From an uncultured Oscillibacter sp. (GTDB lineage Bacteria > Bacillota > Clostridia > Oscillospirales > Oscillospiraceae), in NCBI GenBank assembly GCA_964455915.1, contig CAYWAS010000001.1, positions 43,882 to 107,881 of the forward strand: a stretch of 64,000 nucleotides of DNA, written 5' to 3'. The position numbers and the translations under genes were made by a program. Below the pieces are notes generated by a model. The model did no database searches. It saw only the letters and a list, made by a program, of their open reading frames with translations, and was not told the origin of the DNA. Position 1 is the first letter of the stretch. The number at the start of each line of letters is the position of its first letter. Below are positions 20,961-36,898 of this stretch, piece after piece.

Positions 20961-22391
20961 ATGGAGCTGAGCTTTTCGCGGCTGTGTCGGGACGAGGCGA
21001 TGCGCGGGCGCTTGCGTGCGCAGATCGACCGCTGCGCGCTGCGCGGGCAGAGCTGGGAGCTGGCGGCGTGTGCGCTGCCGGAGGGCTGTCGCCCCGCGCG
21101 GGTGACGCTGGGGTTTTACCGGCGCGCGGACGGGGCGTATGTGATGTACTGGCGGCCGACGGTGGTCTATCGCGGGGATGGTCGGGGGCTGGGGCTGCTG
21201 TTTGCGCAGTGCCTGTGGTCGTTCGAGCGCTACGAGCTGCTGTCGGCGCGGCTGGGGTCGCTGCGCGCGGAGCTCGGCGCGGAGGAGGAATCGCCTCTCC
21301 CCTGCCCTGCTGCGTCGATCGGGAGCGGGTCGCTGCGCGCGCGGCTCGGCGCGCGGGTGTTCGGTCAGGCGGCGGCGGTGGAGGCCGCGGCGTATTATCT
21401 GGATGGGCATCTTGCCAAGTGCGCACCCGCGCGCCCGCTCTCGCTGATCCTGCACGGGCCGACGGGGGTCGGCAAGTCGGAGCTGGGGCGCGCGGCGGCG
21501 GAGCTGCTGACGCAGTCGGACGGCGAAGCGTGGCAATCGGTGTGGACGGAGCTGAACACCTTCACGCACGCGCACTCGGTCTATCGTCTGACAGGCGCAC
21601 CGCCGGGGTATGTCGGCTACGAGGACGAGCCGGTTTTCGCGGCGGTGCAGCGCAATCCGCGCACGGTGTTTCTCTTCGACGAGCTGGACAAGGCGCACCC
21701 GGAGCTGTGGAAGGTGTTCATGTCCGTGCTGGACGAGGGGCGCTGTTCGCTCCATCGCGTTGCGCGGGACGGGCCGCGCGAGCTGGATCTGCGGCGGTGT
21801 GTGTTTCTGTTCACGACGAATCTTGATCTCAGCGCTGCCGCGATGCGCACGGTGGGCTTCGCGGCGGAGGCAGACGGCAGCAAAGCAGCCGCCGCACCGG
21901 TCGAGCTGGCGCAGCGGCTGTATGATGAAAATGAGGTCGGGCGTCGGGCGCTGATCCGCCATGGCGTCCTGCAAGAAGTCGCGGGACGCTTCACGGGGAT
22001 CATTGGCTTCCGTCCGCTGGACGATGCAGCGCAGCGGCAGATCGCCGCGCGAAAGGCCGTCTCACTCGGCGAGGAGTACGGACTGCACATCGCACGCGTC
22101 ACGCCGGAGGCCGCCGCAGCGCTCCTGCCCGCAGAGGCGGGCGTGTCGATCCGCTCCGCGCTGTGTCTGATCGAGGCAAAGCTCGCTCCGCTGTATCAGC
22201 GGGCGGCAGCCGGTGCCGCGTCCGCGGCGCTTCAGCTCACATCGATAGACGGCATAGTGATGCTCTCGGACTTCTCCTCCGCGGGCTTTTCCTCCTTCGC
22301 GGGCTTCGACGCCGTGGGCTTTGACACAGCGGGCGTCGCCGCGCGCATGGAAAGCTCATGCACCGAATTCTCGTCAGACAAAAAACGGTAG
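20961..22391 (+). CDS. Stand-alone AAA+ ATPase of the ClpA/ClpB second-NBD (D2) type with an unrecognised N-terminal domain
   Basis: RVFGQAAAV, Walker A GPTGVGKS, pore loop LTGAPPGYVGY, Walker B LFDELDKAH, sensor-1 FTTN, Arg finger EVAGRF; AAGGAGG RBS before ATG 20961. Confidence 0.85.
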   Translation: MELSFSRLCRDEAMRGRLRAQIDRCALRGQSWELAACALPEGCRPARVTLGFYRRADGAYVMYWRPTVVYRGDGRGLGLLFAQCLWSFERYELLSARLGSLRAELGAEEESPLPCPAASIGSGSLRARLGARVFGQAAAVEAAAYYLDGHLAKCAPARPLSLILHGPTGVGKSELGRAAAELLTQSDGEAWQSVWTELNTFTHAHSVYRLTGAPPGYVGYEDEPVFAAVQRNPRTVFLFDELDKAHPELWKVFMSVLDEGRCSLHRVARDGPRELDLRRCVFLFTTNLDLSAAAMRTVGFAAEADGSKAAAAPVELAQRLYDENEVGRRALIRHGVLQEVAGRFTGIIGFRPLDDAAQRQIAARKAVSLGEEYGLHIARVTPEAAAALLPAEAGVSIRSALCLIEAKLAPLYQRAAAGAASAALQLTSIDGIVMLSDFSSAGFSSFAGFDAVGFDTAGVAARMESSCTEFSSDKKR

Positions 22392-23101
22392 AGATGCAGT
22401 CCGTCGGACGAGAGGAAATAGTTCCCCGCGATGATGTTGGTGCCGTGCTTTTCGTCCACACGGTAGATGTCGATGCGCATACAGCTCTGCCCGTTGATCA
22501 TGACCAGACCGTCGCGGGAGTAGACGCGATACATCTCCATGCTATCGCCGTCCAGCTCCAAAACCGAGGGCGAGATCGCTTTGATCCGATCCACTGCGGA
22601 GGAAAAGGTGATCGCCTGCATATTGCCTGCCTGCGCAGCGCTTTTCGGCGGGTAGGTCATTGCGGCAGGGACCTGTTCCAGCGTGACGGTGCAAACGCCC
22701 GTCTCCCAGCGAATGCCCATGGCGATCGCCTGCCTCTCTCCGTCCCCCTCGGGCTTGGGAAGGCGATGGACCAGATAGGCGCTCCCGCTCTCCGTAGAAA
22801 GGTCGGGCGCTTCCTCGGTCTCCTGCAAGGACTCCTCGGCGTAGAGAAAGCCCATATCCTCCGTTGTGAGGAGCGCCGCGTAAGCGGCGACCACGGAGGC
22901 CGCGTTCGTCATACCCTCATAGCGGTATGCGATGAGCGTGACTGCTTCCTCCTCGTCCGCGCTGTCCGTTTCCTCCGGCTCCTCCGGCTCTTCCGCGTCT
23001 TCCGCGGAGAACAGGCGGTCCTTTAATAAGAACACCGCAGCCAAAACGATCACAGCGGCCAACGCGATGATCACTTTTTTATTGCCTAATAATCGTTTCA
23101 C
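22232..23101 (-). CDS. Membrane-anchored hypothetical protein
   Basis: 289 aa; N-terminal basic plus hydrophobic anchor (KKVIIALAAVIVLAAVFLL), acidic linker; last gene of the DUF342 operon. Confidence 0.75.
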   Translation of the reverse strand: MKRLLGNKKVIIALAAVIVLAAVFLLKDRLFSAEDAEEPEEPEETDSADEEEAVTLIAYRYEGMTNAASVVAAYAALLTTEDMGFLYAEESLQETEEAPDLSTESGSAYLVHRLPKPEGDGERQAIAMGIRWETGVCTVTLEQVPAAMTYPPKSAAQAGNMQAITFSSAVDRIKAISPSVLELDGDSMEMYRVYSRDGLVMINGQSCMRIDIYRVDEKHGTNIIAGNYFLSSDGLHLYRFLSDENSVHELSMRAATPAVSKPTASKPAKEEKPAEEKSESITMPSIDVS

Positions 23102-23138
23102 TCGTTTTCTTCTCCTTCAGCCGCTATTCGGCTGCTCT

Positions 23139-25067
23139 TCACATACAGCGGATCGTCACACTGTCCCGATCCTGCACGACCTGAAGAAAGCCCGCTTCGC
23201 TCCCGTTGACCGCGAGATAAACCGGCTGCTCCAGCGTCTCAAAATCCAGACCGGAGTGCTCCAGAAGATCCATCAGATAGTAGGGCTGGCCGTCCTCCTT
23301 CGCTTGCAGGGTCAGCGGCTTTTCGTTGAGCAGAATGTGAACGGAGTGAGCGCTCACACGCGGCTCGGCAGGCGTCTCGATCTGCACGGTCGGCTCTTCG
23401 ATGTGCGCCTCCACCACCTCTTCCGGCTGCTTCGGTTCCGATTCCGGCTCCTGCTCCTGCGCAGGCTCCTCTTCCCGTTCTGCCGTGGGCTGCTTCTCCA
23501 GCGTCAGAATCACATCGCCCTGCTTGAGCGGCGTGTCCATCGGACAGTCGAGATTGTTGAGCAAAACGCGGCCGCAGAAGTCTTCCCCGAGGAACTGCCC
23601 CAGCGTTTTTTTCGCGTCGGTCCCCTTCTGCGCCGGAACGAAGCGGATCCTGTCTCCGGCATGGACCGGCATATTGATCGCAGCCTCTTCCTCGTTGAGC
23701 TGTAGCACCGCCGGTATAGACGGCTCGCCGCGCAGCACGACCAACTGCCCGTCGTAGGTGACGCTCATGCTCTTTCCGGTCCCGCCAAGCATATCGGCGT
23801 AGGTGTAGCCATTCATCAGCAGCACATCGCGAAGGCTCAGCGTCCCGCTTCGGAACAGCTTCGCCGGTGCGCCGTTGAGCATGACGACATAGCTGTCGTT
23901 CAACAGACCGAGACCAGCGGAGACCGCGATCCCCAGCGGGGTCGTATACTCCGGATTGTCCAGCCTGATCTGCTCCGAAAAGGCACTCTTGGCAAAATTA
24001 TTGCCGGCGATGGCCACTCGTCTCTGATCCATGCCGAGGCTCTCCGCGACCTTTTCGCGCAGACCGCTCAGCTTGCTTCCGCCGCCCGCCAGAAATACCG
24101 CAGACGGCGCAGCGCCGTTCACCGAGACGATCTGCTCGGCGATCGCTTCGGCGAGTTTGGACAAGGGCGCGTCGATCGCAGCGCAAATGTCCTCATAGCT
24201 GTAGGTTTGCTCCAGCCCGAGGATATCGATGAAGCTGCTCTCCTCGCCGACCTTCAAGCCGCGCTTGATCTGCTCCGCCGTTTGGAAATCCACAAGGTAC
24301 GCCTGCATGAGCGCCTCTGTGATCTCATCACCGGCGACCGTCGCCATGGTATAGCCGACAACGCTCCCGTCCTTGCAGATCGCGATATCCGTGGTGCCCG
24401 CGCCGATGTCCACGAGTGCCAGATTCAGCATTCGAAGCTCCGACGGGATCGCCGCGTTCATGGCGGCGATCGGCTCGAGCGTCATGCTCGCGACCTGAAG
24501 TCCGGCCGAGCGCATCGCGGCGTAAAGGCTCTCCACGACCTCCCCGGGCAGGAAGGTCGCCACGATATCCACCTCCGCCACAGCTCCGCTATGGTCGAGC
24601 AGCGCCGTGAGCGGGTAACCGTCCAGCCGATACTGCGAGACGGTGTAGCCGACGAGGAAAAACTGCTGTTTTGTCTCCTCCTGCGCCTGCAGCGCCTGCT
24701 CCGCTTCGGAAACCGCGCCGGCCTCCAATCGGCTGATCTGCTCGGCATCGATGCTCTTCCCGCCGGTCAGGGCGAGAGAAAAGCTGCCGCGCTCCGTGCG
24801 CAGCGCGCGACCGGCGGCGGCAACGCAGACGCGCTCCAGCCGCACGCCCAGCCGCTCCTCCAATCGGTGTGTGACCGTCTGCGCCAGTCCGGCCACCTGC
24901 TGGATATTGTCGATCTGACCGTCGATCATGGCTCGCTTGCTGTGCTCGGCAAGCTCCACATCGAGGACCTTGAGACGGTCCCCCTCCGCGACACCTACGA
25001 GCCCCACAACGCAGCGGGTCCCGATATCCAGCGCATAGATCAGATCATTTCCGGCTGCTGCATTCAT
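23139..25067 (-). CDS. FtsA-like actin-fold ATPase with C-terminal beta-grasp (ThiS/MoaD-like) repeats
   Basis: Actin-fold motifs ALDIGT, LEPIAA, LVDIGAGTTDI, VFLAGGGSKL, TTPLGIA; C-terminal repeats such as LAVNGSEAGFLQVVQDRDSVTI and VLLNN...PLKQGDVI. Confidence 0.85.
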   Translation of the reverse strand: MNAAAGNDLIYALDIGTRCVVGLVGVAEGDRLKVLDVELAEHSKRAMIDGQIDNIQQVAGLAQTVTHRLEERLGVRLERVCVAAAGRALRTERGSFSLALTGGKSIDAEQISRLEAGAVSEAEQALQAQEETKQQFFLVGYTVSQYRLDGYPLTALLDHSGAVAEVDIVATFLPGEVVESLYAAMRSAGLQVASMTLEPIAAMNAAIPSELRMLNLALVDIGAGTTDIAICKDGSVVGYTMATVAGDEITEALMQAYLVDFQTAEQIKRGLKVGEESSFIDILGLEQTYSYEDICAAIDAPLSKLAEAIAEQIVSVNGAAPSAVFLAGGGSKLSGLREKVAESLGMDQRRVAIAGNNFAKSAFSEQIRLDNPEYTTPLGIAVSAGLGLLNDSYVVMLNGAPAKLFRSGTLSLRDVLLMNGYTYADMLGGTGKSMSVTYDGQLVVLRGEPSIPAVLQLNEEEAAINMPVHAGDRIRFVPAQKGTDAKKTLGQFLGEDFCGRVLLNNLDCPMDTPLKQGDVILTLEKQPTAEREEEPAQEQEPESEPKQPEEVVEAHIEEPTVQIETPAEPRVSAHSVHILLNEKPLTLQAKEDGQPYYLMDLLEHSGLDFETLEQPVYLAVNGSEAGFLQVVQDRDSVTIRCM

Positions 25068-25088: not shown

Positions 25089-25469
25089 TTATCCCTTGCC
25101 GATCGCCTTCATCGCGCCCTGCAAGCCCTCCAGAAGAGATTCCTTCGTAAAGGGCTTGAAGAGAAAGCCCTTCGCGCCCAGCGCAGCGGCCTTATCGATA
25201 ATGTCGCCATACGCCATAGACGAGACCATAAACACCTGCGCGTCCGGCCACTTTTTCCGCAGCGCATCGCAGGTCTCCAGCCCGTCCATACCAGGCATCA
25301 CAATATCCATCGTCACAAGATCGGGCATCACCTGTTCATACTGCTCCAGCGCTTCCTCGCCGGTCCTGCAATAAGCTGCGATCTCAAATTCGCTGCCCTC
25401 CAGCATTTTTTTCATTTCCGAGTGGATCACGCGTGAATCGTCAACCACCATGAGTTTATAGTGTGCCAT
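25089..25469 (-). CDS. Second CheY-like single-domain response regulator
   Basis: VVDDS, TMDIVMP (phospho-Asp), VSS and FKPF conserved; follows cheX. Confidence 0.88.
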   Translation of the reverse strand: MAHYKLMVVDDSRVIHSEMKKMLEGSEFEIAAYCRTGEEALEQYEQVMPDLVTMDIVMPGMDGLETCDALRKKWPDAQVFMVSSMAYGDIIDKAAALGAKGFLFKPFTKESLLEGLQGAMKAIGKG

Positions 25470-25484: not shown

Positions 25485-25979
25485 TTATTGTGCTCTTTGC
25501 GAAGTGAGCGTCCAGGAAAAGACCGCCCCTTCGTTGCTGTCGCTTATGAAATCCACCGAATATACTCTGTTTTCATTCTGCATCGCGGCGGCATCGTTAT
25601 GATGCCTGTAGATCGTCGGCAGAAAGCGGGCGGACTGCCCGGTCAGGTTGTAGAGCTCCGAAACGAATCGTCCGCAGACCATGTTGAAAAATTCCGTTGC
25701 GTACTCCTCTACCTCTTCCTGATCGCTCGCCGGTGCCCCGATCATGCCGGCCGCCAGCCGCTCAAAAAGACTCTGCTCGGCCTCGAGCCACATGAGCAGT
25801 GTGAATTCACCCCTCGTCTCGGCGTATACGACACCGAGCGGCTGCGTTGAAAAGCGTATCGGTCCGCCCTGTGCTCTTGAGATCTGTATTCCGCTGATCT
25901 GCTCTAATATCTCGCAGAGAAGCTGCTCAGCCAACTGGCTGACCCACTCCTGCTCGATCGCTTTTTGCAAGCAGATCAC
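25485..25979 (-). CDS. cheX: CheX-family CheY-P phosphatase
   Basis: VEEYATEFFNMVCGRF ExxN motif; size about 164 aa. Confidence 0.8.
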   Translation of the reverse strand: MICLQKAIEQEWVSQLAEQLLCEILEQISGIQISRAQGGPIRFSTQPLGVVYAETRGEFTLLMWLEAEQSLFERLAAGMIGAPASDQEEVEEYATEFFNMVCGRFVSELYNLTGQSARFLPTIYRHHNDAAAMQNENRVYSVDFISDSNEGAVFSWTLTSQRAQ

Positions 25980-25988: not shown

Positions 25989-27716
25989 TTAGTAAATACT
26001 TTTGATTTCCTCTTCCTTGACATCGTAGACCATGCGGCAGCGATGACAGGGCTCCTTCGCCACCCAGGTGCGATTGTGGATCTTCAATGCGGTGACCGGA
26101 TAGACATCATCTGCCTCAAACCGGCACTTGGAAAGATCCGGAAGGATCAGCTTCAGGCTCTCGCGCGCGGCAAGCTGCTTCTTTTCCTTCATTCCCAGCA
26201 TGGACTTGCGCAGCCGCGCCCTTGCGAGCTCCGGCGTACTGCTCTCCTGTCCGCCGATCCGCTCCAGATAGCCAAGATCCTTCTCAAGCCGCTCCATTTC
26301 CGCGTGGATCTCCTCCAGCCGGTCCTCCACGGCCTGCATCTCCGTTTGAACATAGGGCAGCACGCCCAGCGTCAGCTCCGTTCTGCGGCCGGACTGCGCG
26401 CCGACCATCTTCGCGCGTATGGAGTAGGCCGCTGTCAAAGCACCGCCGATCACGCTGCCGCGGCCGCTCGTCACATTGATCCCCTCGTCGCTGAAGATCT
26501 GCGAGGTCATGATGCAGTCCGCATAAACGGTCTTCCCCGCATAAAGCACGCAGTTTTCAAGATATTTCGCGCGGACGCAGCCCTTGCTTCGCAGCAGCGC
26601 CCGATGATCTCCGACAACGCCGCGGCTGATGACAAGGTCTCCGCCTGCCTCCACGGTCGCAGCCTCTACAAGACCGTCGATCGTAACAGTGCCGCTTGCC
26701 CGCACCTCGAAGCCTTCCCGCACATCTTTATAGATGTGGACATCTCCGTTGAACTCGATGTTGCCCGTCGAATAGTCGACATCGCCGCGGATCTCCAGCA
26801 CCGGACGGACATGGAAGGAGCCGTTGGCAAATTCCAGATGCCCTTCGCGCGTTGCGACCAAATGCAGCCCATCGTCGCTGATCGCGGTGTTGCTGCCCTT
26901 CGGCACCTTCGCCGGTCGGACCGGCTTCGGGCGGACGATCTTTCCGTCCACCTGAACACCCGCCGTTCCCTCCTGCGGAAGTACGATGTCGCAGATGCAG
27001 GTGTCCTTCTCGATCTGACGGACATAGTTCATCGAGCGGTAGTCCGCCGTGCCGTCTTCGTTTATCATGACCTCCCGCGTGACCTCGCGGGGGAAGAGCT
27101 CCGTCACCTTGCCGTCGGACCCCTCCACCGGCTCCGTGCCCGCCGCAATGGGGATCAGTTCAAAATACGGGTGCTCCTGCAGCAGACGCACGACCTCGTT
27201 GGAGTCGATGCCGGTCATCACGCCGGCGTCCTGAAGCGCCTTGCCCAGCGCGCCCGCCTCGAACTGTCCCTCGGGACCAAAGGGCGGAAAGAAGAATACC
27301 CACGCCAGCATCTTGTCTCTGGACAGATAGACCTGACAACTGCTGCTCAGCGAGAAATTCTCCTGCTCTTTTCCCTTTTCGATCAGATGGAGACGGCTCT
27401 TCGCGTCCTGCTCCAGCTTGACGATCAGACGAACGCGCTCCTGCTCCAGAAGGTGTGCCGCCCGTTCCGGATCGCGTACATTTTTCGCCGGAGCGATCTC
27501 AAGCAGCGGCGGCACGGACGAGTTTGTCCACAGCTCCCACAGCTTCAGCGAAGCACCTTTGATCTCCGGCAGATAGATCTTATGCTCAATCGGACGATCG
27601 TCCTCGTCCGAGGTATGTTCAAGCTCTGAAGGTTGAGAAGGTACATCTTGTTCGATTTTCTCCGATTCGACCGCATTTTTGCGAAACGGGCTTCCAAAGT
27701 GCCATTTCCTGCTCAT
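25989..27716 (-). CDS. DUF342/FapA family protein
   Basis: LSRDKMLAWV...ALQDAGVMTGID N-terminal motif; GDVDYSTGNIEFNGDVHI...GGDLVISRGVVG beta-helix repeats. Confidence 0.88.
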   Translation of the reverse strand: MSRKWHFGSPFRKNAVESEKIEQDVPSQPSELEHTSDEDDRPIEHKIYLPEIKGASLKLWELWTNSSVPPLLEIAPAKNVRDPERAAHLLEQERVRLIVKLEQDAKSRLHLIEKGKEQENFSLSSSCQVYLSRDKMLAWVFFFPPFGPEGQFEAGALGKALQDAGVMTGIDSNEVVRLLQEHPYFELIPIAAGTEPVEGSDGKVTELFPREVTREVMINEDGTADYRSMNYVRQIEKDTCICDIVLPQEGTAGVQVDGKIVRPKPVRPAKVPKGSNTAISDDGLHLVATREGHLEFANGSFHVRPVLEIRGDVDYSTGNIEFNGDVHIYKDVREGFEVRASGTVTIDGLVEAATVEAGGDLVISRGVVGDHRALLRSKGCVRAKYLENCVLYAGKTVYADCIMTSQIFSDEGINVTSGRGSVIGGALTAAYSIRAKMVGAQSGRRTELTLGVLPYVQTEMQAVEDRLEEIHAEMERLEKDLGYLERIGGQESSTPELARARLRKSMLGMKEKKQLAARESLKLILPDLSKCRFEADDVYPVTALKIHNRTWVAKEPCHRCRMVYDVKEEEIKSIY

Positions 27717-27874: not shown

Positions 27875-29689
27875 TCAATACTTGTCGAAGTTGCTGGCAG
27901 CGCCGGCGGTATAGCCGCTCGTATCCTCGGAGACTTCGGCAGCCGCGGGAAGCTCCGCCACCTCGGTGTAGCCCGACGCGCCGCTGCGCAGCTTGAACTT
28001 CAGCATGAGCTCCTTGATCAGTGTCGCCTGGCTGGACAGCTCCTCGCTGGCCGCGGCAGACTCCTCGCTGGTCGCGGAGTTCGTCTGCACGACAGAGGAG
28101 ATCTGGTCGATGCCCTCGGTGACCTGCGCGATGGCTTCCGCCTCTTCCTCGACGGCCTTGGCAATGCCGCTGATGGACTTCTTCAGCTCCTCCGTGGCGT
28201 CGACGGTCCTCTTGAGGGAATCCGAGACCTTCTTCACGATCTCGTTGCCGTCCTCCACCGCGTTGATCGAGCGGTTGATCAGCTCCTTGGTCGCCTTCGC
28301 AGCCTCGTCGGACTTGGCAGCAAGGTTGCGCACCTCACCGGCCACGACAGCGAAGCCCTTGCCGGCGCTGCCCGCGCGGGCAGCCTCCACGGCCGCGTTC
28401 AGCGCGAGGATATTGGTCTGGAACGCGATATTCTCGATGGTCGCGATGATCTTGCCGATCTCCTGCGAGGAGTTGGAGATATTGTCCATGGCGCTGACCA
28501 TCTCGTTCATGTTGTGGGCACTTTCGTCAAGCTGGGAGCTGGCATAGCTGGTCCGCTCCATGGCTTCCTCGCTGCCCTTGGCATTCTTCTGCGCGTTGTT
28601 GGAAATGTCGGTGATCGTGGCGGAGAGCTCCTCCACCGCGCTCGCCTGCTCGGTTGCGCCCTGCGCCAGCGCCTGCGCGCCGACAGAGACCTGCTCGGAA
28701 CCGGAGGAGACCTGCTCGGCGCTCATGGTGATCTGCGCGAGCGTATCGCTGAGCTGATAGTTGATCTCGCGGATCGCCTCACGCATGGGGATCAGGCCGC
28801 CGACATAAACGCTCTCGTCCTTAAAGCGCAGCGCAAAGTTGCCCTTTGCCATCTCGCCGAGCAGATAGGAGACTTCGCCCACCACGGTTTTCAGGCAGTC
28901 CTGACTGTCTCGCAATGCCTGTGCCATCTCGCCCAGCTCGTTCTTGCTGCTGAAGTCCACGGGGATATCGAACTTGCCCTGGCTGAAGCCGACCAGCGCA
29001 CCGTGGACCTGCGCGGTGGGAACCGTGATGCCCCTGATGATCGTCAGCACGAGTGCGATGACGAAGATCGTGGCGACCACCATGGCGGCGATCACGACAA
29101 AGATCGTCGTCAGAACATTCTTTTCGATCCTCGTGCGCTCAGCGTCCATGCCGGAGACAAGATATGCGTCCAGATTCTCCGCAGCCGTTGCCATTTCCGT
29201 CAGCATGGGAGTGTCCTGCTCATAAACGATCTTGTTCGCCTGCTCAAGATAGGTCGCGTCGCCGGTGCTCTGGTATCTCTCGTAGAGGGAGATGACATTC
29301 TCGGCGATGGCGCGCCACTCGGAATTGACCCTGTCATACTCCTCCAGCAGAGACTTGTCCGTCAACTGATGGGGCCAGGTCTTCGCCATGCTGTCGGTAT
29401 AAGCCTGCATCGTTTCCAGACTCTCCTTCGCCGCATCGATCAGAGCGGCGTTCGCGGCGCTGTCGGGGATCAGGAGCGCATCGCGGTAATCGCGTCCCGC
29501 CATGACCGCATTCAGTCTGGCAAAAAGGATCGATTCATTGGTCTCAACATCTTCATTCAGCAAGAGCTCGTATTCCTCTCGCTGGTTCATCATCATGAAC
29601 ATACAGGCAAGAATGATCGCTACCGCGATCACGATCGTGATCGCATACCCCAGAACGAGGCTTTTCTTGATTTTCATGTTTTTGAGCAT
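27875..29689 (-). CDS. Methyl-accepting chemotaxis protein (2 TM, helical extracellular sensor, HAMP)
   Basis: TM1 near the N-terminus, TM2 then HAMP (ITVPT...[12 protein letters not shown]); tip [20 protein letters not shown]. Confidence 0.95.
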
Positions 29690-29758: not shown

Positions 29759-30493
29759 TTACACAACTTCTCCGTATTTTCCCTTCGGAACATCGCCGAA
29801 TATCCTGCCGTGGCTCATCGTGATCACACGCTTGCGCAGGATACTGACATACTTGTCCGCGTGGGTCGCCATAATGACCGTCGTTCCCTTGCGGTTGATC
29901 TCGGTGAGCAGGTGGAAGATATCCCAGATATTATCATCGTCCAGATTCGCCGTGATCTCGTCGAGGACCAGGATCGCCGGACTGTTGATCAGCGCGCGTG
30001 CCAGCTCGACGCGGCGGCACTGCCCGATGGACAGCTCGACCGGAAAGCATTTCTCAACGCCGCTCATGCCCACAAGCCCAAGCACCTTTTCCACGCGCCG
30101 GTCCAGCGACTCCTTCGACTCACCAAAGCGGCGACCGATGCGCGCGGTCATTTCCAGATTATCCTTCACCGTCATCTTGCGCACAAGCGTCTGCTGCTCC
30201 TGCCACACGCGGCCAAACATCAGCCGGACGGACTTCTGGTGGAAAGGACTCAGATTTGCAAGATCTAACTGATCGACCATCACGCTTCCCTGATCCGCCT
30301 TGATCTGTCCTGTGATCAGATTCAGCAGCGTCGTCTTGCCGCAGCCGCTCTCTCCGACGATAAACACAAATTCGCCCTGCCTGATGTTGAGGTTGATGTG
30401 CTCGACACCTAACACGGTCTCCCGCTTTCGCAGCAGTCGTTTGCGGCCTGTGGGATAGCTCTTCGCTACATTTGTCAGCTTCACTTCCGGCAT
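29759..30493 (-). CDS. FtsE-like ABC ATPase (no ftsX adjacent)
   Basis: Walker A GESGCGKT, LVLDE, TTVIMATH and FtsE-like tail RKRVITMSHGRIFGD...GKY; signature LSIGQ and D-loop ITANLD are atypical. Confidence 0.8.
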   Translation of the reverse strand: MPEVKLTNVAKSYPTGRKRLLRKRETVLGVEHINLNIRQGEFVFIVGESGCGKTTLLNLITGQIKADQGSVMVDQLDLANLSPFHQKSVRLMFGRVWQEQQTLVRKMTVKDNLEMTARIGRRFGESKESLDRRVEKVLGLVGMSGVEKCFPVELSIGQCRRVELARALINSPAILVLDEITANLDDDNIWDIFHLLTEINRKGTTVIMATHADKYVSILRKRVITMSHGRIFGDVPKGKYGEVV

Positions 30494-30531: not shown

Positions 30532-30560
30532 TTGTCTTTTTTCCAAAGTACTGATATAAT
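30532..30560 (+). promoter_or_regulatory. SigA-type promoter of the C39-like peptidase
   Basis: TTGTCT-N17-TATAAT with an extended -10 TG. Confidence 0.7.
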
Positions 30561-30595: not shown

Positions 30596-31459
30596 ATGAA
30601 AAAAACCTACGAACCAAATCATAAAAAACGGCGACTGCTTGCCACTTTCCTTCTGGCACTGCTCTGCATCGGCAGCGCGGAGCTGATCGCCTGCTCCATT
30701 TTTGCTCCCGAAACCTTTGCGCGCATCACCGCGCCGGTCCGCTCCGCCGCCGATGCCGTGGTCGATACGGGGCGCTCTGTCGCTTCCGACCTCGCGCTCT
30801 GGTACGCCGATTTGACGGCACCCGACGAGGAGCCCGCGCAGGAAGTCGACGAGCCGACGCTCAAAAACACCTCACCGATCCTGGACCCCGTCATCACTGA
30901 GCTCATCAGCGATGGGGATACGGACATTCTGACCGGCGGCACCGTCAATGTCGTCTACTACGCTCAGGGAGACGACGCGTGGGCGGAGCAGCCTTACGGC
31001 AGCGACCGCATCGGTCGCTACGGCTGCGGCCCCGTGGCGCTTGCCATGGCCATCAGCAGCATGACGGACGAAACGATCGATCCGGTCCAGGCCGCGCAGG
31101 AAGCGGTCGCCGCGGGATACTGGGCGAAGGGACATGGCTCGTACCTGTCCATCGTGACCGGCCTTGCGAAAAAGCACGGGCTTCACGCCGAAGCGGTCGA
31201 GAGCAAGACCGTGGATTCGGTGCAGGACGCGCTCCTTTCCGGCAAGCTCCTTGTGGCGCTCATGGGGCCGGGGCATTTTACCAACGGCGGGCATTTTATC
31301 CTCATTCGCGGCATCACGCTTCAGGGAACGCTGCTCGTAGCCGACCCCAACAGCATCGACCGGAGCTTGCAGGAATGGGACCCGCAGTTGATTTTGGACG
31401 AGCTGTCCCACAGCACCGCGCACGGCGCGCCGCTGTGGGCGCTGAGCAGCGAACCTTAA
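30596..31459 (+). CDS. Membrane-anchored C39-like (papain-fold) peptidase
   Basis: N-terminal anchor; YYAQGD..W, GCGPVALAMAIS (Cys), GHFILIRG (His), VADPNS (Asp). Confidence 0.85.
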   Translation: MKKTYEPNHKKRRLLATFLLALLCIGSAELIACSIFAPETFARITAPVRSAADAVVDTGRSVASDLALWYADLTAPDEEPAQEVDEPTLKNTSPILDPVITELISDGDTDILTGGTVNVVYYAQGDDAWAEQPYGSDRIGRYGCGPVALAMAISSMTDETIDPVQAAQEAVAAGYWAKGHGSYLSIVTGLAKKHGLHAEAVESKTVDSVQDALLSGKLLVALMGPGHFTNGGHFILIRGITLQGTLLVADPNSIDRSLQEWDPQLILDELSHSTAHGAPLWALSSEP

Positions 31460-31478
31460 ACCCGCCGCTTTCCCGATG

Positions 31479-31512
31479 AAGCATTGGCTCGGTAAACGAG
31501 CCAATGCTTTTT
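31479..31512. terminator. Bidirectional terminator between the C39 gene and the fliD operon
   Basis: AAGCATTGGCTCG-GTAAA-CGAGCCAATGCTT. Confidence 0.8.
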
Positions 31513-31900
31513 ATTTTCGATAGACCGACTGCTCTCTTGCGATCTTCAGGTTCAGGCTCTCGTCCAGCGTCAGCACCCGCTTGAGCAGCAGATCGTTGCT
31601 GCGAAGCTGCGCGGCGAGCGGCTTTTCGATCTCCGCGCCGGCCTCCGCCCCGTTCAAAAGCTCCGTCAGACGCTCCGCGTCCTGCGGGCTCATACCGTCT
31701 CTCAATGCACTGAGCGCCTGCCTTGCCTGCTCTGCCTTGTGGATCGGCTCGCCGCGCATGGCGATCAGCATTCGCGCAGTCACCTGATCGTTTCGGTCCA
31801 GCGCTTCGGCAAGCTGCCTGGAAAGGTCTTCCACCTCCGAGAGCAGCACATAGAGACGCTTTGCCATCATCTGCGCCTTGCGCAGCATCATTTCCTCCAT
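31511..31900 (-). CDS. FliT/FlgN-like helical chaperone
   Basis: 129 aa after fliD-fliS; LAEALDRNDQVTARMLIAMR pattern resembles FliT. Confidence 0.55.
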   Translation of the reverse strand: MEEMMLRKAQMMAKRLYVLLSEVEDLSRQLAEALDRNDQVTARMLIAMRGEPIHKAEQARQALSALRDGMSPQDAERLTELLNGAEAGAEIEKPLAAQLRSNDLLLKRVLTLDESLNLKIAREQSVYRK

Positions 31901-31903: not shown

Positions 31904-32287
31904 TCAGCCCAGCTTTTCCGCCTCTGCGCTCTTGTCCGCCTGAGAGAAGGCATCGCGCAGCTCCATGGAGAGCTTCTTGATATGCGTGATCACTTCGGCG
32001 TTTCTTCCGATCTTTGCGCGGTTGAGCTCGTAGGTGAAATATTCATACATCTGCGCCAGCTCTCTGCTGATCGGATACTGCCGGTCCAGTATCCCGTCAA
32101 GATACCGGACAATGTCGATCCCGCGCTGAACAGACGCTTCAAAGACCGCGTAATTTTCTTTGTTCAGGGCCAGCTCCGCCTGCGTCAGTCGTTTTACCAG
32201 TTCATCATAAAGGAGCAGCAGAAGTTCCCCCTGCGTCATGGTGCTGATGCTTTGCTCCTTGTAGTGCTGGTAACCTCTTGTATCCAT
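31904..32287 (-). CDS. fliS: Flagellin chaperone FliS
   Basis: YQHYKEQSISTMTQGELLLLLYDE...LAQMYEYF. Confidence 0.95.
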   Translation of the reverse strand: MDTRGYQHYKEQSISTMTQGELLLLLYDELVKRLTQAELALNKENYAVFEASVQRGIDIVRYLDGILDRQYPISRELAQMYEYFTYELNRAKIGRNAEVITHIKKLSMELRDAFSQADKSAEAEKLG

Positions 32288-32317: not shown

Positions 32318-35089
32318 TCAGTAGCCTCCGGTCAGGCCGGCAAGCGCAGAACTCTGCGAGTTCATCTCGTTGATGAGCTGTTCGAGCTGCGTGAACTTGC
32401 TTGTATAGTAATCTACCTTGTCAGAGAGCTTGTCCTGCCAGGATTCGATCTGCTTGTCCAGCTCGTCAAGCTGCTTCTGGATCGTATTCTGATACACCGA
32501 TGTCGGCGCGAGAGACGAGCCCGCCTTCTCCACCAGGATACCCTTGGTCGCGCCGGTCGTCGCCGCGTACATATCCAGCGGAGACTTGAGCGCCGTCATC
32601 AGACCGTTGCTCGACGCACCGGTCTCCTTGCTTTTGGTGAAAACATCGCGCACCTTGTCCGGATCAGTCTCCAACGCGGAGCGGAGCTTGCTCTCATTGA
32701 GCGACAGCGTGGTCAGACCGTCGTCGTATGTCGTGCTGATGCCGATGGACGAAAGCTCCAGTCCCACGGACTGCACCGCATTGGTCAGGCGCGTGTAGAG
32801 GTTCGAGAGATCGCGGTCGGCAAACAGCAGACCCGTCTTCGCCTTCTCCTCATACGACTTGATGGCGGATTCGCTCATGCCCTCCTCGTCTGCCGAGGTG
32901 AGCGGCTCATAGTACGCGCCGTTGGACTTCTGAAGAGGCAGCGTGGAGTAAGCGTCCTTGACCTCCTTGACCATGGCGTTGTATTCCTCGACCATGGACT
33001 TGATCGCGTCCACGATGGTGTCCGCGTCGGCCTCGCTCTTGAAAGTGACCGCCTCGGTGCCCTTGAGGAACAGGTCTCCGTTGGCGGCAGGAGTAAACTC
33101 GTTGCCGTTCGCGTCCTGATAGACCGCCTTGCCCGTTGTCGGAACTCCTCCAAAATCGAATCCCATGTCCTTCAATTCCTTCAGGAGCTCTGTATATGTA
33201 ACACCATCTTCATTGACATACTCGCCTGCATCATTCACATACTTGTAATCAAGGTTATAGCGTTTGTTATTAAAGTAAGCCTCGCCCTCTACGACTGGCG
33301 TGTTATTACCCGCCGGCTCACCTACAGCCTTATATACACCGTTCGCCACCTCGACCTTGGTGGCATAGCCGAAAGTGTCCTTGACATTGATGCTCAGTCC
33401 GTCGATATCAAAGGTATTGGAGGAGCGCTCGAGCTCCATCTCCTCACCGTTGACCGAGACCCTGACCATGGCGTCCTTCCCCTGAACATAGCCGCTGCCA
33501 TAGACCTTCTCGCCGGCGTCGTTCGTTGTATAGGTATCACCGAACAGCGCGCCTGCCAGACCGCCGCTGATGTCAACTCTTCCCGCCGTTCCACTGTCTC
33601 TGGCGGTGAATTTGAACTGATTGGTGGTCTTGGAATAGGACAGCGTCACATTGGCATCGGCGTTGCCGTTGATGCCGGTCATCACCGTTTCAAACGCGGT
33701 GTTCTTCGAGAACGCGCCTACGGTCTCGCCGTTGATCTCCAGCTTGTGCAGCCAGTTGCCGTCCTCGTCTACACGGTAATACTTACCGTCCTCGTTCTTC
33801 GCCACGCGGTTGCCGTCGGCATCTTTGTAGTAGGCGGCGGTGTTCTTGGTAGCCGCTACCTCCTTGACCGATCCCTTGGCCTCGATCATAGTGCCTGTGC
33901 CCGTCCAGTCAAAGCCTTTCAGCAGGTCTCCCAGCTTCTGGCTGGTGTTGACATAAGAGGTCTCGCTGTTGCTTTCCAGACCCAGAGCCTTGCCGTTGTC
34001 GACCTTCAGCGTGGAGCCCTTAGCCACCTCAAAGGACAGTCCGCCCTCACCGTTGACCTTGGCCGTCACCTTGCCGGTGCCGAACGCATCGTTCAGCTCC
34101 GCCTGCAACGCCTTCTGTAAGCCGGCAGTATCGGTAAAGGTATGGTCCTTCAGGCTGATCTTCTTGGTCTTACCGTCCAGCGTGAAGGAGACCTCTTCCT
34201 CCTTCAGCTTGTCGGCGTAGGTCTTTGTGTCATCATACAGCGCCTTGTCTTCCACCTTGATTTCCTTCACGCCGTCGCTGACGCTCTTGGACTCGATGCC
34301 GAGTGTGGTTTTCAGATCGCCGCTGGCACTCAGCACGAACGCGCCGTTGCCGCCGCCGCCCACATCTGTGAACTTGATGGTTTTTGCGGCATCGTCCCAC
34401 TCGGCCTTGATCTTCTGATCGGCGGTATAAGCATTGCCGGAGAGGGTGATATTCTGCTCCTTCAGGGCGGCGTTGATCTCATCGGCCAGCTCCTGACCGG
34501 TTTTGATCACTTCCGTGCCGCCGTCCTTGATGCCGTCGATGCTGATGGTGATTTGAGTAGCGCCGCCGTAGCCCAGCGTCAGCGTACCGGCTACCTTGCT
34601 CGCATCATATTTCTTGTCCAGCTCGAGCTTACCGCCTTCAACGCCTGGCTTGTCGCCCGTTCCACCCGTCAGCGCACCGCCGCTGACGGTGTAGCCGGAG
34701 GCGGTCGCGAGCTGCTTCACGCCCAGCAGCTTCACATCGCTGGAGGTCTTGCCGGTGGCAGACGCCTTGTCCTTGTGTGCCCCCAGCGTGCTGACCTTGA
34801 CCGCGTTGTTGAAAAAGCTCGCGGACATCAGATTGGTCGAGGAGGTGTAGGAGGCAAACTTGTTCGAAAAGCCCGCCATCTTCGTGATGATGCTGCGGTA
34901 CGCCTCCTGCTGCCATTCCAGCTTTGTCCGCTTCTGCGTCAAACTGCTGATCTTCGTCTCATAGCCGGAAACAGCGTTCTGGATCAAAGTTTCGGTGTCC
35001 AGACCGCTTGCAAGGCCGGAGATCACATTTCTGGTCCCGTAAATACTGGAGGTGGACGAGCTGTTTGTCAAACTGGAAATCGATGCCAT
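32318..35089 (-). CDS. fliD: Filament cap protein FliD (923 aa)
   Basis: ISGLASGLDTETLI, KLEWQQEAYR, VKQLATA; C-terminus YYTSKFTQLEQLINEMNSQSS. Confidence 0.96.
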   Translation of the reverse strand: MASISSLTNSSSTSSIYGTRNVISGLASGLDTETLIQNAVSGYETKISSLTQKRTKLEWQQEAYRSIITKMAGFSNKFASYTSSTNLMSASFFNNAVKVSTLGAHKDKASATGKTSSDVKLLGVKQLATASGYTVSGGALTGGTGDKPGVEGGKLELDKKYDASKVAGTLTLGYGGATQITISIDGIKDGGTEVIKTGQELADEINAALKEQNITLSGNAYTADQKIKAEWDDAAKTIKFTDVGGGGNGAFVLSASGDLKTTLGIESKSVSDGVKEIKVEDKALYDDTKTYADKLKEEEVSFTLDGKTKKISLKDHTFTDTAGLQKALQAELNDAFGTGKVTAKVNGEGGLSFEVAKGSTLKVDNGKALGLESNSETSYVNTSQKLGDLLKGFDWTGTGTMIEAKGSVKEVAATKNTAAYYKDADGNRVAKNEDGKYYRVDEDGNWLHKLEINGETVGAFSKNTAFETVMTGINGNADANVTLSYSKTTNQFKFTARDSGTAGRVDISGGLAGALFGDTYTTNDAGEKVYGSGYVQGKDAMVRVSVNGEEMELERSSNTFDIDGLSINVKDTFGYATKVEVANGVYKAVGEPAGNNTPVVEGEAYFNNKRYNLDYKYVNDAGEYVNEDGVTYTELLKELKDMGFDFGGVPTTGKAVYQDANGNEFTPAANGDLFLKGTEAVTFKSEADADTIVDAIKSMVEEYNAMVKEVKDAYSTLPLQKSNGAYYEPLTSADEEGMSESAIKSYEEKAKTGLLFADRDLSNLYTRLTNAVQSVGLELSSIGISTTYDDGLTTLSLNESKLRSALETDPDKVRDVFTKSKETGASSNGLMTALKSPLDMYAATTGATKGILVEKAGSSLAPTSVYQNTIQKQLDELDKQIESWQDKLSDKVDYYTSKFTQLEQLINEMNSQSSALAGLTGGY

Positions 35090-35251: not shown

Positions 35252-36034
35252 TTGGCTAAGATCATTACTGTGACCAATCAGAAGGGCGGCGTCGGGAAAA
35301 CGACCATTACAGCAGCCCTTATTGCCGAGCTCCAGCGCAGGGGTGCGCGTGTTCTGGGCGTGGACATCGACCCGCAGGGCAACCTCGGCTTCTCGTTCGG
35401 GCTGAACATCGAGGACGGGCTTTCCGTTTACGATGTCCTGACCGGAAAATGCTCGACCGCCGAAGCGATCGCGCACACGGACTACGGTGACATTCTGCAC
35501 ACGGACATCATGCTCTCGGCCTTTGTCTCGGGAGACAGCGGCTTCCACACGAGCAAGGACACCATGCTCTCGTACCATCTCGATCAGGTCAAAAGCGATT
35601 ACGACTTCATTTTCATCGACACGCCGCCGTCCCTGAATATTCTGACGATCAACGCCTATGTCGCCTCGTCGGAGCTCATCATTCCGATGAACGCCGAGGT
35701 TTTGAGTCTGGTCGGCATTTCGCAGATCCAGGACACCGTTGAGGCGATCCGCAAAAGCTCCAATCCGAATCTGAAGGTCTGCGGCATCGTTATGAACAAA
35801 TACAACGCGCGCCTGATCTCTCACCGTGAGATCCTGGACATGGCGGAGCAGCTCGCCGAGCAGATGGACACGAGGGTCTTCCCTGCCAAGATCCGAAACG
35901 GCATCGATGTCGCGACCGCACCTGCCCACGGGCAGAGCGTTGTGACCTACCGCCCGAAGTCGAATCCGGCGATGGACCTTCGCAAGCTCGTCGACGCGGT
36001 CGCAGGCGACCGATTCTCCCGCACAAGAAAATAA
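35252..36034 (+). CDS. Orphan ParA/Soj-family ATPase
   Basis: Deviant Walker A NQKGGVGKTT, DIDPQGN, IDTPPSL; no parB in the window. Confidence 0.92.
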   Translation: MAKIITVTNQKGGVGKTTITAALIAELQRRGARVLGVDIDPQGNLGFSFGLNIEDGLSVYDVLTGKCSTAEAIAHTDYGDILHTDIMLSAFVSGDSGFHTSKDTMLSYHLDQVKSDYDFIFIDTPPSLNILTINAYVASSELIIPMNAEVLSLVGISQIQDTVEAIRKSSNPNLKVCGIVMNKYNARLISHREILDMAEQLAEQMDTRVFPAKIRNGIDVATAPAHGQSVVTYRPKSNPAMDLRKLVDAVAGDRFSRTRK

Positions 36035-36051: not shown

Positions 36052-36077
36052 AAAGCCCCGGCCATGACCGGGGCTTT
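36052..36077. terminator. Bidirectional terminator between parA and the ComFB-domain gene
   Basis: AAAGCCCCGG-CCATGA-CCGGGGCTTT. Confidence 0.82.
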
Positions 36078-36082
36078 ATTCT

Positions 36083-36898
36083 TTACTGCTCTGCGCCTGC
36101 GTGCCGCGGCGACTCCGCGACCCGATTGCAGGCGTGCAGGATCTGCGCCGTAACAGCAGCGCTGTATCTGCGCTCGTATACCGAGATGCGGGGAATGCGT
36201 TCCCCCTCGCCCATGACAACATATTTCGGCTGCAAATTGTTCAGCGCGATCGCCCTCACATCTGCCTTGCAGCGAGAGCAGCGGCAAATGCCGAACATGG
36301 TCATATACTTCTCGGCGCTCTCCTCCACAAGTGCCTGCATGACATTGCAGATCTTCTCGCGCGGAGCGCTTTCCTCCGCAGGCTCTTCCACCTGCTTTGC
36401 GTCGCTCTCGCCGATAGGCGCAGCGGGTGCAGCAGGCACGGGAGCCGGCTCAGGTTCAGTCTCTGGCTCTGGAACGGATTCAGGCTCGGGAACAAGCTCA
36501 GGTTCAGACTCAGGATTCAGTTCAGAAACGGATTCAGGCTCGGGAACAGGAGCAGGGTCAGCTTCGAAAACAGGCTCCGCCTTGACCGGCACAGCCTCCT
36601 CCGGCTCCTCGACAGCCGGACGCTCCGGCTGCTGCGGGGCGGACAGCTCTTCGCCCGTCACCTCCCGCTCCAACGCGTCCTTGATCTCCTGCGAGACGGC
36701 GGCCTCCTCATTGAGTGAGGCAATGATCGGGTGCTGCACAGGCACAGTCCTCTGCGCCGCAGCGACTGGTCGCTCCGCTTCACCGGCGGCCTCCGTCTGC
36801 TGCTGAACGGCGTTTTCCGTAGCCGTGGTGTTCCCGTTCTTACGCAGCAGATTCATGACATGAGCGGTTTTTGTGGTGTCCTTGTTTTTTGCTGACAT
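36083..36898 (-). CDS. ComFB-domain protein with a long Pro/Glu-rich N-terminal linker
   Basis: C-terminal NVMQALVEE...CRCSRCKADVRAIALNNLQPKYVV...ACNRVAESPRH is the ComFB-family signature as recalled. Confidence 0.8.
   Translation of the reverse strand: MSAKNKDTTKTAHVMNLLRKNGNTTATENAVQQQTEAAGEAERPVAAAQRTVPVQHPIIASLNEEAAVSQEIKDALEREVTGEELSAPQQPERPAVEEPEEAVPVKAEPVFEADPAPVPEPESVSELNPESEPELVPEPESVPEPETEPEPAPVPAAPAAPIGESDAKQVEEPAEESAPREKICNVMQALVEESAEKYMTMFGICRCSRCKADVRAIALNNLQPKYVVMGEGERIPRISVYERRYSAAVTAQILHACNRVAESPRHAGAEQ
36440..36580. repeat. Low-complexity (PE)n coding repeats
   Basis: Repeated TCAGG/CTCAGG units with GGATTCAGGCTCGGGAAC twice; encodes PEPESVSELNPESEPELVPEPESVPEPETEPEP. Confidence 0.75.

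Follow-up and report, generated by a model that had tools for sequence, protein, structure and literature searches.

How flagellar number and placement are set in peritrichous bacteria that lack FlhF and FlhG is an open question, and reviews that deal with such bacteria treat enterobacteria only (PMC12826062). The question is raised by a stretch of 64,000 nucleotides from an uncultured Oscillibacter sp. (hereafter the window; positions 43882-107881 of contig C1, CAYWAS010000001.1, in a 1.9 Mb assembly of 108 contigs that is 96% complete), in which flagellar genes lie among genes for an FtsA-like, an FtsE-like and a ParA-like ATPase, a putative peptidase and a DUF342 protein. A sequence-only reading had taken these five proteins for one repurposed 'mini-divisome' that chooses the sites of flagella, opens the cell wall for them and replaces FlhF, FlhG and FlgJ. 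We assigned gene identities by Pfam and NCBIfam scans of the open reading frames (ORFs) of the window with a high GC content at third codon positions, and domain scans place the five genes where that reading had put them. Our analysis points to another interpretation, which we hold with moderate confidence: the stretch with the five genes carries several accessory modules of one clostridial flagellar type, inherited with that flagellum and separable from each other. The five genes make up at least three such modules. The genes that matter most to the argument are the following.

22232-23101, minus strand: extracytoplasmic, N-terminally anchored protein of 289 amino acids (unk289, hereafter the lipoprotein), recognised by N-terminal alignment and synteny
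23139-25067, minus strand: actin-like ATPase of the FtsA/PilM fold, 642 amino acids (TIGR01174, 100.6 bits; Foldseek)
25989-27716, minus strand: FapA/DUF342 beta-solenoid protein (Pfam FapA, PF03961, E = 3e-56, 191.5 bits against a cut-off of 31; FapA_N, E = 2.5e-33, 115.4 bits against 27)
29759-30493, minus strand: soluble, single-domain ATP-binding cassette (ABC) ATPase of the FtsE/LolD/MacB class, 244 amino acids (TIGR02673, 170.5 bits)
30596-31459, plus strand: membrane-anchored, extracytoplasmic, papain-like protein of the Peptidase_C39_2 family (Pfam PF13529, E = 2.2e-16, 61.2 bits against a cut-off of 24)
35252-36034, plus strand: orphan ATPase of the ParA/Soj type, 260 amino acids (Pfam AAA_31, E = 6e-46)
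36083-36898, minus strand: ComFB-domain protein (Pfam ComFB, PF10719, E = 1e-16, 61.3 bits against a cut-off of 25; strand by tblastn)

Position 36898, at which the sequence-only reading ends, is the end of this last gene and not of the ParA-like gene. Close homologues bear the names Oscillibacter, Oscillospiraceae, Lawsonibacter and Flavonifractor. According to the Pfam and NCBIfam scans, the window is a fla/che supercluster of the style known from Bacillota, and the 15-kb stretch in question is its late-gene end. Between 17 and 45 kb the domain scans gave flagellar, chemotaxis and cyclic di-GMP (c-di-GMP) genes only, with no ftsZ, ftsX, parB or minE among them. The five genes had been said to lack their division partners, and to that extent they do, but the ParA-like ATPase has a conserved partner of another kind in the ComFB-domain protein. 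In B. subtilis, flhF and flhG occupy the interval between flhA and fliA; in the window fliA comes directly after flhA, with neither gene in between, and this flagellar type with flhA and fliA side by side and without flhF and flhG is a distinct clostridial one that occurs in Oscillospiraceae and in many Lachnospiraceae. No protein of the genome reaches the FlhF cut-off (TIGR03499), the best matches (86 and 68 bits) being too weak and probably representing FtsY and Ffh, the GTPases of the signal recognition particle (SRP). Queries with FlhG proteins of FlhF-positive relatives, which carry the DQAxxLR motif, recovered from the genome only a MinD-like protein (64 bits), Soj, the ParA-like ATPase (30 bits) and one more weak ORF. 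The sequence-only reading was right about the absence of FlhF and FlhG as far as this genome is concerned: an flhFG pair elsewhere in the genome, which it had named as the finding that would speak against it, turned up neither by profile nor by FlhG query. FlgJ is missing too, as it had supposed, with no rod-binding domain in the genome; since the B. subtilis control genome also lacks this domain, its absence is ordinary for Bacillota.

The distribution of the genes was followed in 201 evenly drawn genomes of the family, most of them metagenome-assembled genomes (MAGs) and many incomplete, with orthologue thresholds of E <= 1e-55 for the ParA-like ATPase, at least 180 bits for the ABC ATPase and at least 200 bits for the C39 peptidase of the flagellar locus. 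FlhA is present in 41 of these genomes, in 21 of them with at least 68% identity ('type A'). The ParA-like orthologue occurs in 21 genomes, which are exactly the 21 of type A, and the ABC orthologue in 19, all of type A (three weaker matches elsewhere are FtsE-sized ORFs of 230 amino acids); neither was found in the 160 non-flagellated relatives. About 14 type-A genomes have the C39 orthologue of the flagellar locus. The FtsA-like protein occurs in 25 genomes (19 of type A, three other flagellated ones and three that are incomplete, at 73-89%, two of which carry the syntenic block) and is absent from the other 176, including 157 of the 160 without FlhA, so that its co-occurrence with FlhA is strong (Fisher p = 3e-15). 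FlhF was found in seven genomes, none of them among the 21 of type A and six among the 20 other flagellated ones. Phylogenetic profiling, the test proposed with the sequence-only reading, thus upholds the link to the flagellum, most plainly for the ParA-like and ABC orthologues, which are confined to genomes with type-A FlhA, and also for the FtsA-like protein; the distributions are nevertheless unequal, and paralogues of the C39_2 peptidase occur in non-flagellated relatives. An anti-correlation with FlhF had also been expected. It holds for the ParA-like ATPase (FlhF in 0 of 18 ParA-like-positive and in 6 of 19 ParA-like-negative flagellated genomes, p = 0.02) but is weak for the FtsA-like protein (Fisher p = 0.08), for which we rejected strict complementarity, 14 flagellated genomes having neither. 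Since all ten of these 14 that were tested also lack the ParA-like orthologue, no simple logic of replacement applies. A second FlhA type (46-55% identity) is seen in G027, G028, G037, G062, G064, G071, G116, G141, G151, G156, G159 and G172; none of them yielded an FlhF or an FtsA-like protein, nor did the ten tested for it yield a ParA-like orthologue (G027 and G141 are not among these).

Gene order across loci bears on whether the five genes make up one unit, and for this the remaining members of the stretch are needed.

25089-25469, minus strand: CheY-type receiver, part of a variable cassette (Pfam Response_reg, E = 5e-26)
25485-25979, minus strand: CheX phosphatase, part of the same variable cassette (Pfam CheX, E = 8.6e-9)
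27875-29689, minus strand: methyl-accepting chemotaxis protein (MCP) with a weak, sub-threshold HAMP match (Pfam MCPsignal, E = 2.3e-43)
31478-31510, no strand: hairpin (stem of 14 bp) separating the C39 gene from the fliD-fliS-unk129 operon that converges on it
31511-31900, minus strand: helical protein of 129 amino acids (unk129) in the FliT position downstream of fliS; no family match, placed by position
31904-32287, minus strand: fliS, flagellin chaperone (Pfam FliS, E = 6e-24)
32318-35089, minus strand: fliD, filament cap (Pfam FliD_N and FliD_C)
36951-38213, minus strand: EAL-HDOD protein, by synteny a conserved neighbour of the ParA-ComFB pair (Pfam HDOD, E = 1.8e-20; partial EAL, E = 2e-8)

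A relative of the FtsA-like protein was found at about 100 loci. Some 65 of them, all in genera of the Oscillospiraceae type (Oscillibacter, Flavonifractor, Pseudoflavonifractor, Lawsonibacter and Allofournierella), keep a block that reads (AAA_2 >) lipoprotein < FtsA-like < (MCP <) ABC < C39 > unk129 < FliS < FliD < and then ParA-like > ComFB > EAL-HDOD <, each sign giving the direction of the gene before it. The position of unk129 is conserved in all of these syntenic loci, while C39 went undetected in about one third. In Lachnospiraceae the order is flhA-fliA-flgG-flgG-cheC-cheD-(cheV)-EAL/HDOD-ComFB-ParA-fliD-fliS-unk129-C39(-ABC): the ParA-ComFB pair, C39 and usually the ABC gene are inside the cluster (that of Lacrimispora G203 is without ABC), and the FtsA-like gene is elsewhere. 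G040 and G063 have lost the FtsA-like and MCP genes and keep lipoprotein-ABC-C39-unk129-FliS-FliD-ParA-ComFB. In the window at least four transcription units, on both strands, hold the listed genes. One is led by the ABC gene and runs through MCP, FapA, CheX, CheY and FtsA-like to the lipoprotein gene with gaps of 9-158 bp; the C39 gene, head-to-head with the ABC gene, has a promoter-like site of its own (30532-30560, extended minus-10, sigma-70-like). Judged from its sequence, the hairpin at 31478-31510 is probably a bidirectional terminator for C39 and fliD-fliS-unk129. Upstream of fliD a sigma-28-type -10 element, GCCGATAA, was seen by eye on the minus strand; the sigma-D/sigma-28 promoter pattern TAAA-N14-16-CCGATA gave no match.

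That the modules are separable follows from the losses in G040 and G063, from the loci without C39, from the rarity of the FapA cassette described below and from the terminator and promoters that split the region. The same observations tell against the 'mini-divisome' as one coherent device, and here the sequence-only reading is not supported. Several points favour the proposal: the five genes lie within a single 15-kb flagellar stretch, FlhF, FlhG and FlgJ are absent from the genome, the ParA-like, ABC and FtsA-like orthologues are limited to the FlhF-less flagellar type, the peptidase is extracytoplasmic with a wall isopeptidase as its best fold match, and the control of hydrolases by FtsEX offers a precedent, the genome's own FtsEX adjoining an M23 peptidase. 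We nevertheless consider it very unlikely. The genes belong to separate transcription units in mixed orientations, their distributions are unequal (of the five, G040 and G063 have lost the FtsA-like gene alone, in Lachnospiraceae this gene is unlinked, about one third of loci lack C39, and FapA is rare), the partner of the ParA-like ATPase is a ComFB-domain and not a division protein, the ABC ATPase and the peptidase have no FtsX-like transducer between them, C39_2 paralogues of 45-50% identity exist in non-flagellated relatives, the lack of FlgJ is normal for Bacillota, and 14 flagellated relatives have neither FlhF nor the FtsA-like protein, the ten tested being without the ParA-like orthologue as well.

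One of the separable modules consists of the ParA-like ATPase and its ComFB partner. The ATPase has the deviant Walker A motif KGGVGKTT, is encoded divergently from fliD and stays under the NF041546 equivalog cut-off (106 versus 180 bits); its closest solved structures are Soj/ParA proteins (E = 1e-36 to 1e-29), with MinD far behind. We ruled out that it is a divergent FlhG: it is of the Soj type, it matches FlhG with 30 bits only, the N-terminal DQAxxLR motif is absent from its sequence and flhF is not its neighbour. It is adjoined by the ComFB-domain gene and not by a ParB/parS partner. The ComFB-domain protein consists of an N-terminal peptide (KTAHVMNLL), a long, acidic, proline-rich linker and the C-terminal ComFB domain; its homologues measure 227-340 amino acids, and the peptide is near-invariant among 59 sequences as K-[ST]-x-K-T-[AS]-H-V-[ML]-N-L-L. 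The ParA-like gene is followed by the ComFB gene on the same strand in 18 sampled orthologue loci (L116-L133) and in a paralogue locus (L140), Lachnospiraceae included, and in most sampled loci the pair is divergent from fliD and beside the EAL-HDOD gene. The ComFB gene of the window is inverted, so that it converges on the ParA-like gene and shares the direction of the EAL-HDOD gene, whereas it is on the strand of the ParA-like gene in every other locus examined; its peptide is intact.

ComFB proteins are receptors of c-di-GMP or cyclic di-AMP (c-di-AMP), that of B. subtilis inhibits motility, and the closeness of comFB genes to flagellar genes has already been remarked (PMC12448109, PMC12265714). 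In the literature we found no description of a ParA-ComFB pair, or of an FtsA-like protein, in flagellar loci. ParA-ComFB is the leading candidate for a module that takes over the function of FlhG. The basic N-terminal peptide of the ComFB protein would dock on the ParA dimer or stimulate it, as ParB-type partners do, and the binding of c-di-GMP to the ComFB domain would tune the action of ParA. The outcome may be a spatial or numerical control of flagella or of chemoreceptor arrays, exerted beside an EAL-HDOD protein.

What, then, is the FtsA-like ATPase? Its likeness to FtsA in sequence spans the first ~380 of its 642 residues, with PilM weaker, and it remains under the cut-offs of both families (TIGR01174, 100.6 versus 175.85 bits, also in a whole-genome search; TIGR01175, 70.4 versus 133 bits). 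An AlphaFold2 (AF2) model built with 27 homologues (mean pLDDT 72) divides it into an actin core (1-385), a beta-rich part (395-522), a disordered acidic linker (525-572) and a confidently predicted beta-grasp domain (573-642). In Foldseek, FtsA structures come first (E = 1e-25 to 1e-22, ~400 aligned columns, TM-score 0.53-0.65 when normalised to target length) and PilM second (E = 3e-19). The nucleotide-binding motifs for phosphate and adenosine (DIGTR, DIGAGTTD and GGGS) are invariant among the homologues, and faint Pfam matches to ThiS, TGS and Ub-Mut7C recur in the C-terminal part of the protein and of its homologues. In the model and the sequence the C-terminal amphipathic membrane-targeting helix is absent, the C-terminus being a beta-grasp domain that ends in a strand.

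The simplest account would be that this is the housekeeping FtsA of cell division, placed in a flagellar locus by chance. It is the only FtsA-family gene of the genome, FtsA is the closest fold and public annotations label its homologues 'cell division protein FtsA'. Yet it is missing from 176 of 201 genomes, falls well short of the family cut-off, has beta-grasp domains where the membrane-targeting helix should be and never lies beside ftsZ in ~100 loci. We regard a housekeeping role as extremely improbable, and have rejected it on the strength of the distribution and the missing helix. No canonical FtsA was found in the 96%-complete genome, where the best FtsA match is the 642-residue protein itself and the next is MreB. 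The genome otherwise holds a genuine FtsE (274 bits, over the cut-off), FtsX (239.7 bits, cut-off 225) and a coiled-coil M23 peptidase together on contig C13, and a Soj-like ParA with a MinD-like protein (193 bits versus a cut-off of 213) on contig C38; a genome without canonical FtsA still has FtsEX, a MinD-like protein, Soj and MreB. The word 'paralogs', under which the genes of the stretch had been introduced, therefore suits the FtsE-like and ParA-like proteins, with a true FtsE and a Soj elsewhere, but not the FtsA-like protein, which has no resident FtsA to be a paralog of.

In Oscillospiraceae the lipoprotein gene is always directly downstream of the FtsA-like gene, and it is kept in G040 and G063, where the FtsA-like gene is lost. 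The N-terminus of its homologues is a lipoprotein signal (L-x-x-C) in some and a transmembrane anchor in others. Together with the FtsA-fold protein, it follows flagella strictly. A pair of the PilM-PilN kind, formed by the FtsA-like protein and the product of this downstream gene, was ruled out, many of the downstream homologues being lipoproteins without a cytoplasmic tail. Stand-alone FtsA-like genes (45-52% identity) are found in Lachnospiraceae (Lacrimispora, Hungatella, Eisenbergiella and Dorea-type MAGs), and likewise in Sporobacter termitidis and three genomes of the Oscillospiraceae (G008, G009 and G055), with unrelated neighbours that sometimes include an MCP or flagellin gene; all 28 genomes with such a gene have FlhA, and only two have FlhF. 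Next to the stand-alone gene of G055 (73% complete; no FlhA recovered) lies a gene for a fusion of a receiver domain (REC) with CheX/CheC (L034, 11522-12385, minus strand).

A further possibility is that the FtsA-like protein is chiefly a component of chemotaxis and not a factor of flagellar assembly; as an actin-like scaffold it would arrange chemoreceptor arrays or put them in place. An MCP gene is its usual upstream neighbour and the commonest immediate one, both in most Oscillospiraceae loci and in several unlinked Lachnospiraceae loci (L077, L078, L098, L100 and L110); in the window CheY and CheX stand between the two, and in L034 the neighbour is the REC-CheX fusion. Adjacency is weaker evidence in genomes with so many MCP genes, however, many loci have no chemotaxis neighbour (L115 in Sporobacter, for example), and we know of no precedent for an actin-like positioning of chemoreceptor arrays. 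As an exclusive explanation this seems to us rather unlikely, although, with an MCP gene so often next to its own, the protein may have some part in organising chemoreceptors. Within the modular interpretation, the operon that leads from the ABC gene via MCP to the FtsA-like and lipoprotein genes may provide a nucleotide-dependent membrane scaffold tied to chemoreceptors or to basal bodies.

The ABC ATPase at the head of this operon is closest to FtsE and under its cut-off (TIGR02673, 170.5 versus 264.85 bits), followed by DarD, DevA and LolD. Read from the sequence, its motifs comprise Walker A, Walker B, the H-loop and a slightly deviant signature, LSIGQ. There is no permease or FtsX gene near it and no FtsX in the window, and a jackhmmer search of the genome for FtsX-like partners returned the true FtsX only. 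The C39_2 peptidase, whose gene diverges from that of the ABC ATPase, has Cys144, His233 and Asp250 invariant in 20 homologues. Its AF2 model (mean pLDDT 87.6) shows a transmembrane helix and long helix (9-74), a floppy linker and a catalytic domain (100-287), and in fold it comes closest to the pseudomurein endoisopeptidase PeiR (E = 2e-5, TM-score 0.45), ahead of the C39 domains of PCAT transporters, staphopain and phytochelatin-synthase-like enzymes. The label 'wall peptidase' is compatible with this model. The peptidase, separately transcribed and with its triad intact, may act on peptides of the wall or on a flagellar substrate that is secreted.

Bacteriocin export typically involves peptidases of the C39 type and ABC ATPases, and the ABC ATPase, the peptidase and the lipoprotein might thus be passengers without a role in motility, for instance the remnant of a peptide-processing or export system. 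The wide occurrence of the C39_2 family outside flagellated genomes and the dispensability of C39 in about one third of the loci would fit. But in two families they have stayed next to fliS and the FliT-like gene, with protein identities of 40-60%, the ABC orthologue occurs only with this flagellar type, and neither a transporter membrane domain nor a gene for a precursor peptide is present, all of which makes passengers unlikely in our view. The control of wall hydrolases by FtsEX is an established precedent, and the FtsE-like ATPase and C39 invite an analogy with it, though one in which the transducer is missing.

The FapA protein, which bears a weak similarity to the C-terminal domain of MinC (NCBIfam, E = 1.7e-4), is not constant among the loci. 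The CheY-CheX-FapA cassette stands between the MCP and FtsA-like genes in ~7 of the ~65 syntenic loci, so that FapA cannot be counted as a regular member; the cassette is an occasional insertion, and a fourth module.

Several points weigh against the modular interpretation as well. Genes embedded in a flagellar cluster would be co-inherited with it even as passengers. The C39_2 family is also present in non-flagellated relatives: paralogues with 45-50% identity in the catalytic domain occur in the FlhA-less genomes G070, G080, G103, G107, G115, G181, G183 and G197, which suggests a general extracytoplasmic role for the family. The stand-alone FtsA-like genes of Lachnospiraceae, Sporobacter, G008, G009 and G055 are tied to flagella by co-occurrence only, the ABC ATPase has no identifiable membrane partner, and the lipoprotein has no match in Pfam, NCBIfam or the PDB, by a profile search against PDB sequences and a member-wise Pfam scan included. 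As for the profiles, many of the 201 genomes are incomplete, the genome searches gave scores only to the best candidates from a permissive initial pass, so that some absences (those of FlhF especially) could be misses, and all co-occurrence statistics are raw and not corrected for phylogeny. In seven of the genomes with C39_2 paralogues (G103, G080, G183, G197, G181, G107 and G115) these sit in ORFs of 425-460 amino acids.

If the parts of this interpretation are put together, a more ambitious picture emerges, which we offer tentatively and think possible but improbable as a whole: gut Clostridia without FlhF and FlhG would set the number or position of their flagella (or arrays) by means of a ParA that rides on the nucleoid or the membrane under the guidance of a ComFB protein sensing c-di-GMP, together with a flagellum-specific filament protein of the FtsA fold with ubiquitin-like tails, and with the FtsE-like ATPase and C39 assisting locally at the wall.

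The rest of the window is that of a flagellar supercluster. From 63 kb downward on the minus strand, Pfam identifies fliF, fliH, fliI, fliJ, fliK, flgD, a 'putative flagellar' protein, flgE, flbD, motA, motB, fliM, fliY, cheY and fliO, and after these, on the same strand, flhA, fliA, two flgG genes, cheC, cheD, cheV, the EAL-HDOD gene and the ComFB-domain gene. There follow the ParA-like gene (plus), fliD, fliS and the gene in the FliT position (minus), the C39 gene (plus), the ABC, MCP, FapA, CheX, CheY, FtsA-like and lipoprotein genes (minus), the gene of an AAA_2 ATPase (plus) and flagellin. By position only, flgB/flgC/fliE would be expected among the ORFs above fliF (62-63 kb), fliG at 59067-60128 and fliP/fliQ/fliR/flhB in the fliO-flhA interval (44.8-47.6 kb). 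On the plus strand between 6 and 17 kb lie cheA, cheW, cheR, cheB, an HU-like gene, flgN, flgK, an ORF in the place of flgL (by position), a DUF6470 gene, fliW and a yjfB-like gene. The AAA_2 ATPase has its own line:

20937-22391, plus strand: AAA_2 ATPase resembling the second domain of ClpB (ClpB-D2-like), 484 amino acids (Pfam AAA_2, E = 2.8e-23)

It consists of a single ClpB-D2-like domain and an N-terminal region without assignment; its gene is convergent with the lipoprotein gene, which it overlaps by 160 nucleotides, and has a syntenic place in ~30 loci, all in the Oscillibacter-type subset. Upstream of cheA are three genes on the minus strand (4224-6560) for a PilZ-domain protein (4224-4814), a stand-alone protein like the C-terminal domain of FlhB (4811-5140) and a protein of 477 amino acids (5127-6560), the last two of which adjoin cheA in Lachnospiraceae too (L146 and L149). 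The gene of the HU-type DNA-binding protein (11191-11505, plus strand) comes after cheB and before flgN, at the usual place of flgM, and no FlgM was identified in the window. In the region 16644-17389 (plus strand) a protein of 142 amino acids has a C-terminal YjfB_motility domain and is longer than the usual ~60 amino acids; a zinc-ribbon protein (17084-17389) comes after it.

The locus type is common in the abundant Oscillospiraceae and Lachnospiraceae of the gut, whose flagellins matter for host immunity. It offers as candidates a ParA with a second-messenger receptor for a partner, an FtsA-fold protein that tracks the flagellum and an FtsE-like ATPase encoded next to an extracytoplasmic peptidase; if one of them turns out to govern where flagella are placed, how many there are or how they pass the wall, this would be a new solution to a classic problem of cell biology, and the ComFB regulators of motility would gain a partner. 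Should they prove to be passengers, the widespread annotation of the FtsA-like family as 'cell division protein FtsA' would still be corrected.

Comparison with known systems brings out what is particular to each module. With the FlhF/FlhG switch, in which FlhG is of the MinD type, the locus shares a ParA/MinD-superfamily ATPase inside a flagellar cluster, one that is confined to genomes without FlhF and FlhG. The ParA-like ATPase, however, is of the Soj/ParA type, lacks DQAxxLR, is beside neither flhA nor flhF, and has ComFB and not an SRP-type GTPase as its partner. With ParA systems that use dedicated adaptors (ParA-ParB, ParC-ParP of Vibrio, PpfA-TlpT of Rhodobacter and McdA-McdB) it has in common that an orphan ParA is combined with a small partner, which has a conserved basic N-terminal peptide and a long linker, in a motility or chemotaxis locus; the cargo or sensor domain of the partner is ComFB here, and not CheW-like, helix-turn-helix or coiled-coil. 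The ComFB domain itself, over its Pfam cut-off, is that of the ComFB/CdgR receptors of cyclic dinucleotides (B. subtilis ComFB and Synechocystis Slr1970), but here it ends a protein of 227-340 amino acids with an N-terminal peptide of the docking type, paired genetically with ParA, as seen from sequence alone.

The FtsA-like protein has the actin fold of FtsA (TIGR01174; PDB 7q6f, 4a2a) and of PilM of type IV pili (PDB 2ych, 5eou) in its N-terminal 385 residues, with the nucleotide motifs intact. It differs from both in lying under their cut-offs, in having ~250 residues of beta-grasp domains and disordered linker in place of the amphipathic helix, and in its neighbours, which are not ftsZ or pilNOPQ, the downstream gene encoding a lipoprotein or anchored protein and not a partner of the PilN type; unlike that of FtsA, its distribution tracks flagella and not cell division. 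FapA resembles the FapA (DUF342) protein of Vibrio vulnificus in its FapA and FapA_N domains, both well over their cut-offs, and differs in belonging to a CheY-CheX-FapA cassette found in a minority of related loci. Finally, as in FtsEX with its wall hydrolases (EnvC-amidases, PcsB, CwlO and RipC), the gene of the ABC ATPase closest to FtsE stands head-to-head with that of an extracytoplasmic peptidase on a long helical stalk, whereas the membrane subunit of the FtsX type is missing, the LSIGQ signature is deviant and the peptidase is papain-like, of the C39_2 family, and not M23, NlpC/P60 or CHAP, the genuine FtsEX-M23 set of this genome being encoded elsewhere.

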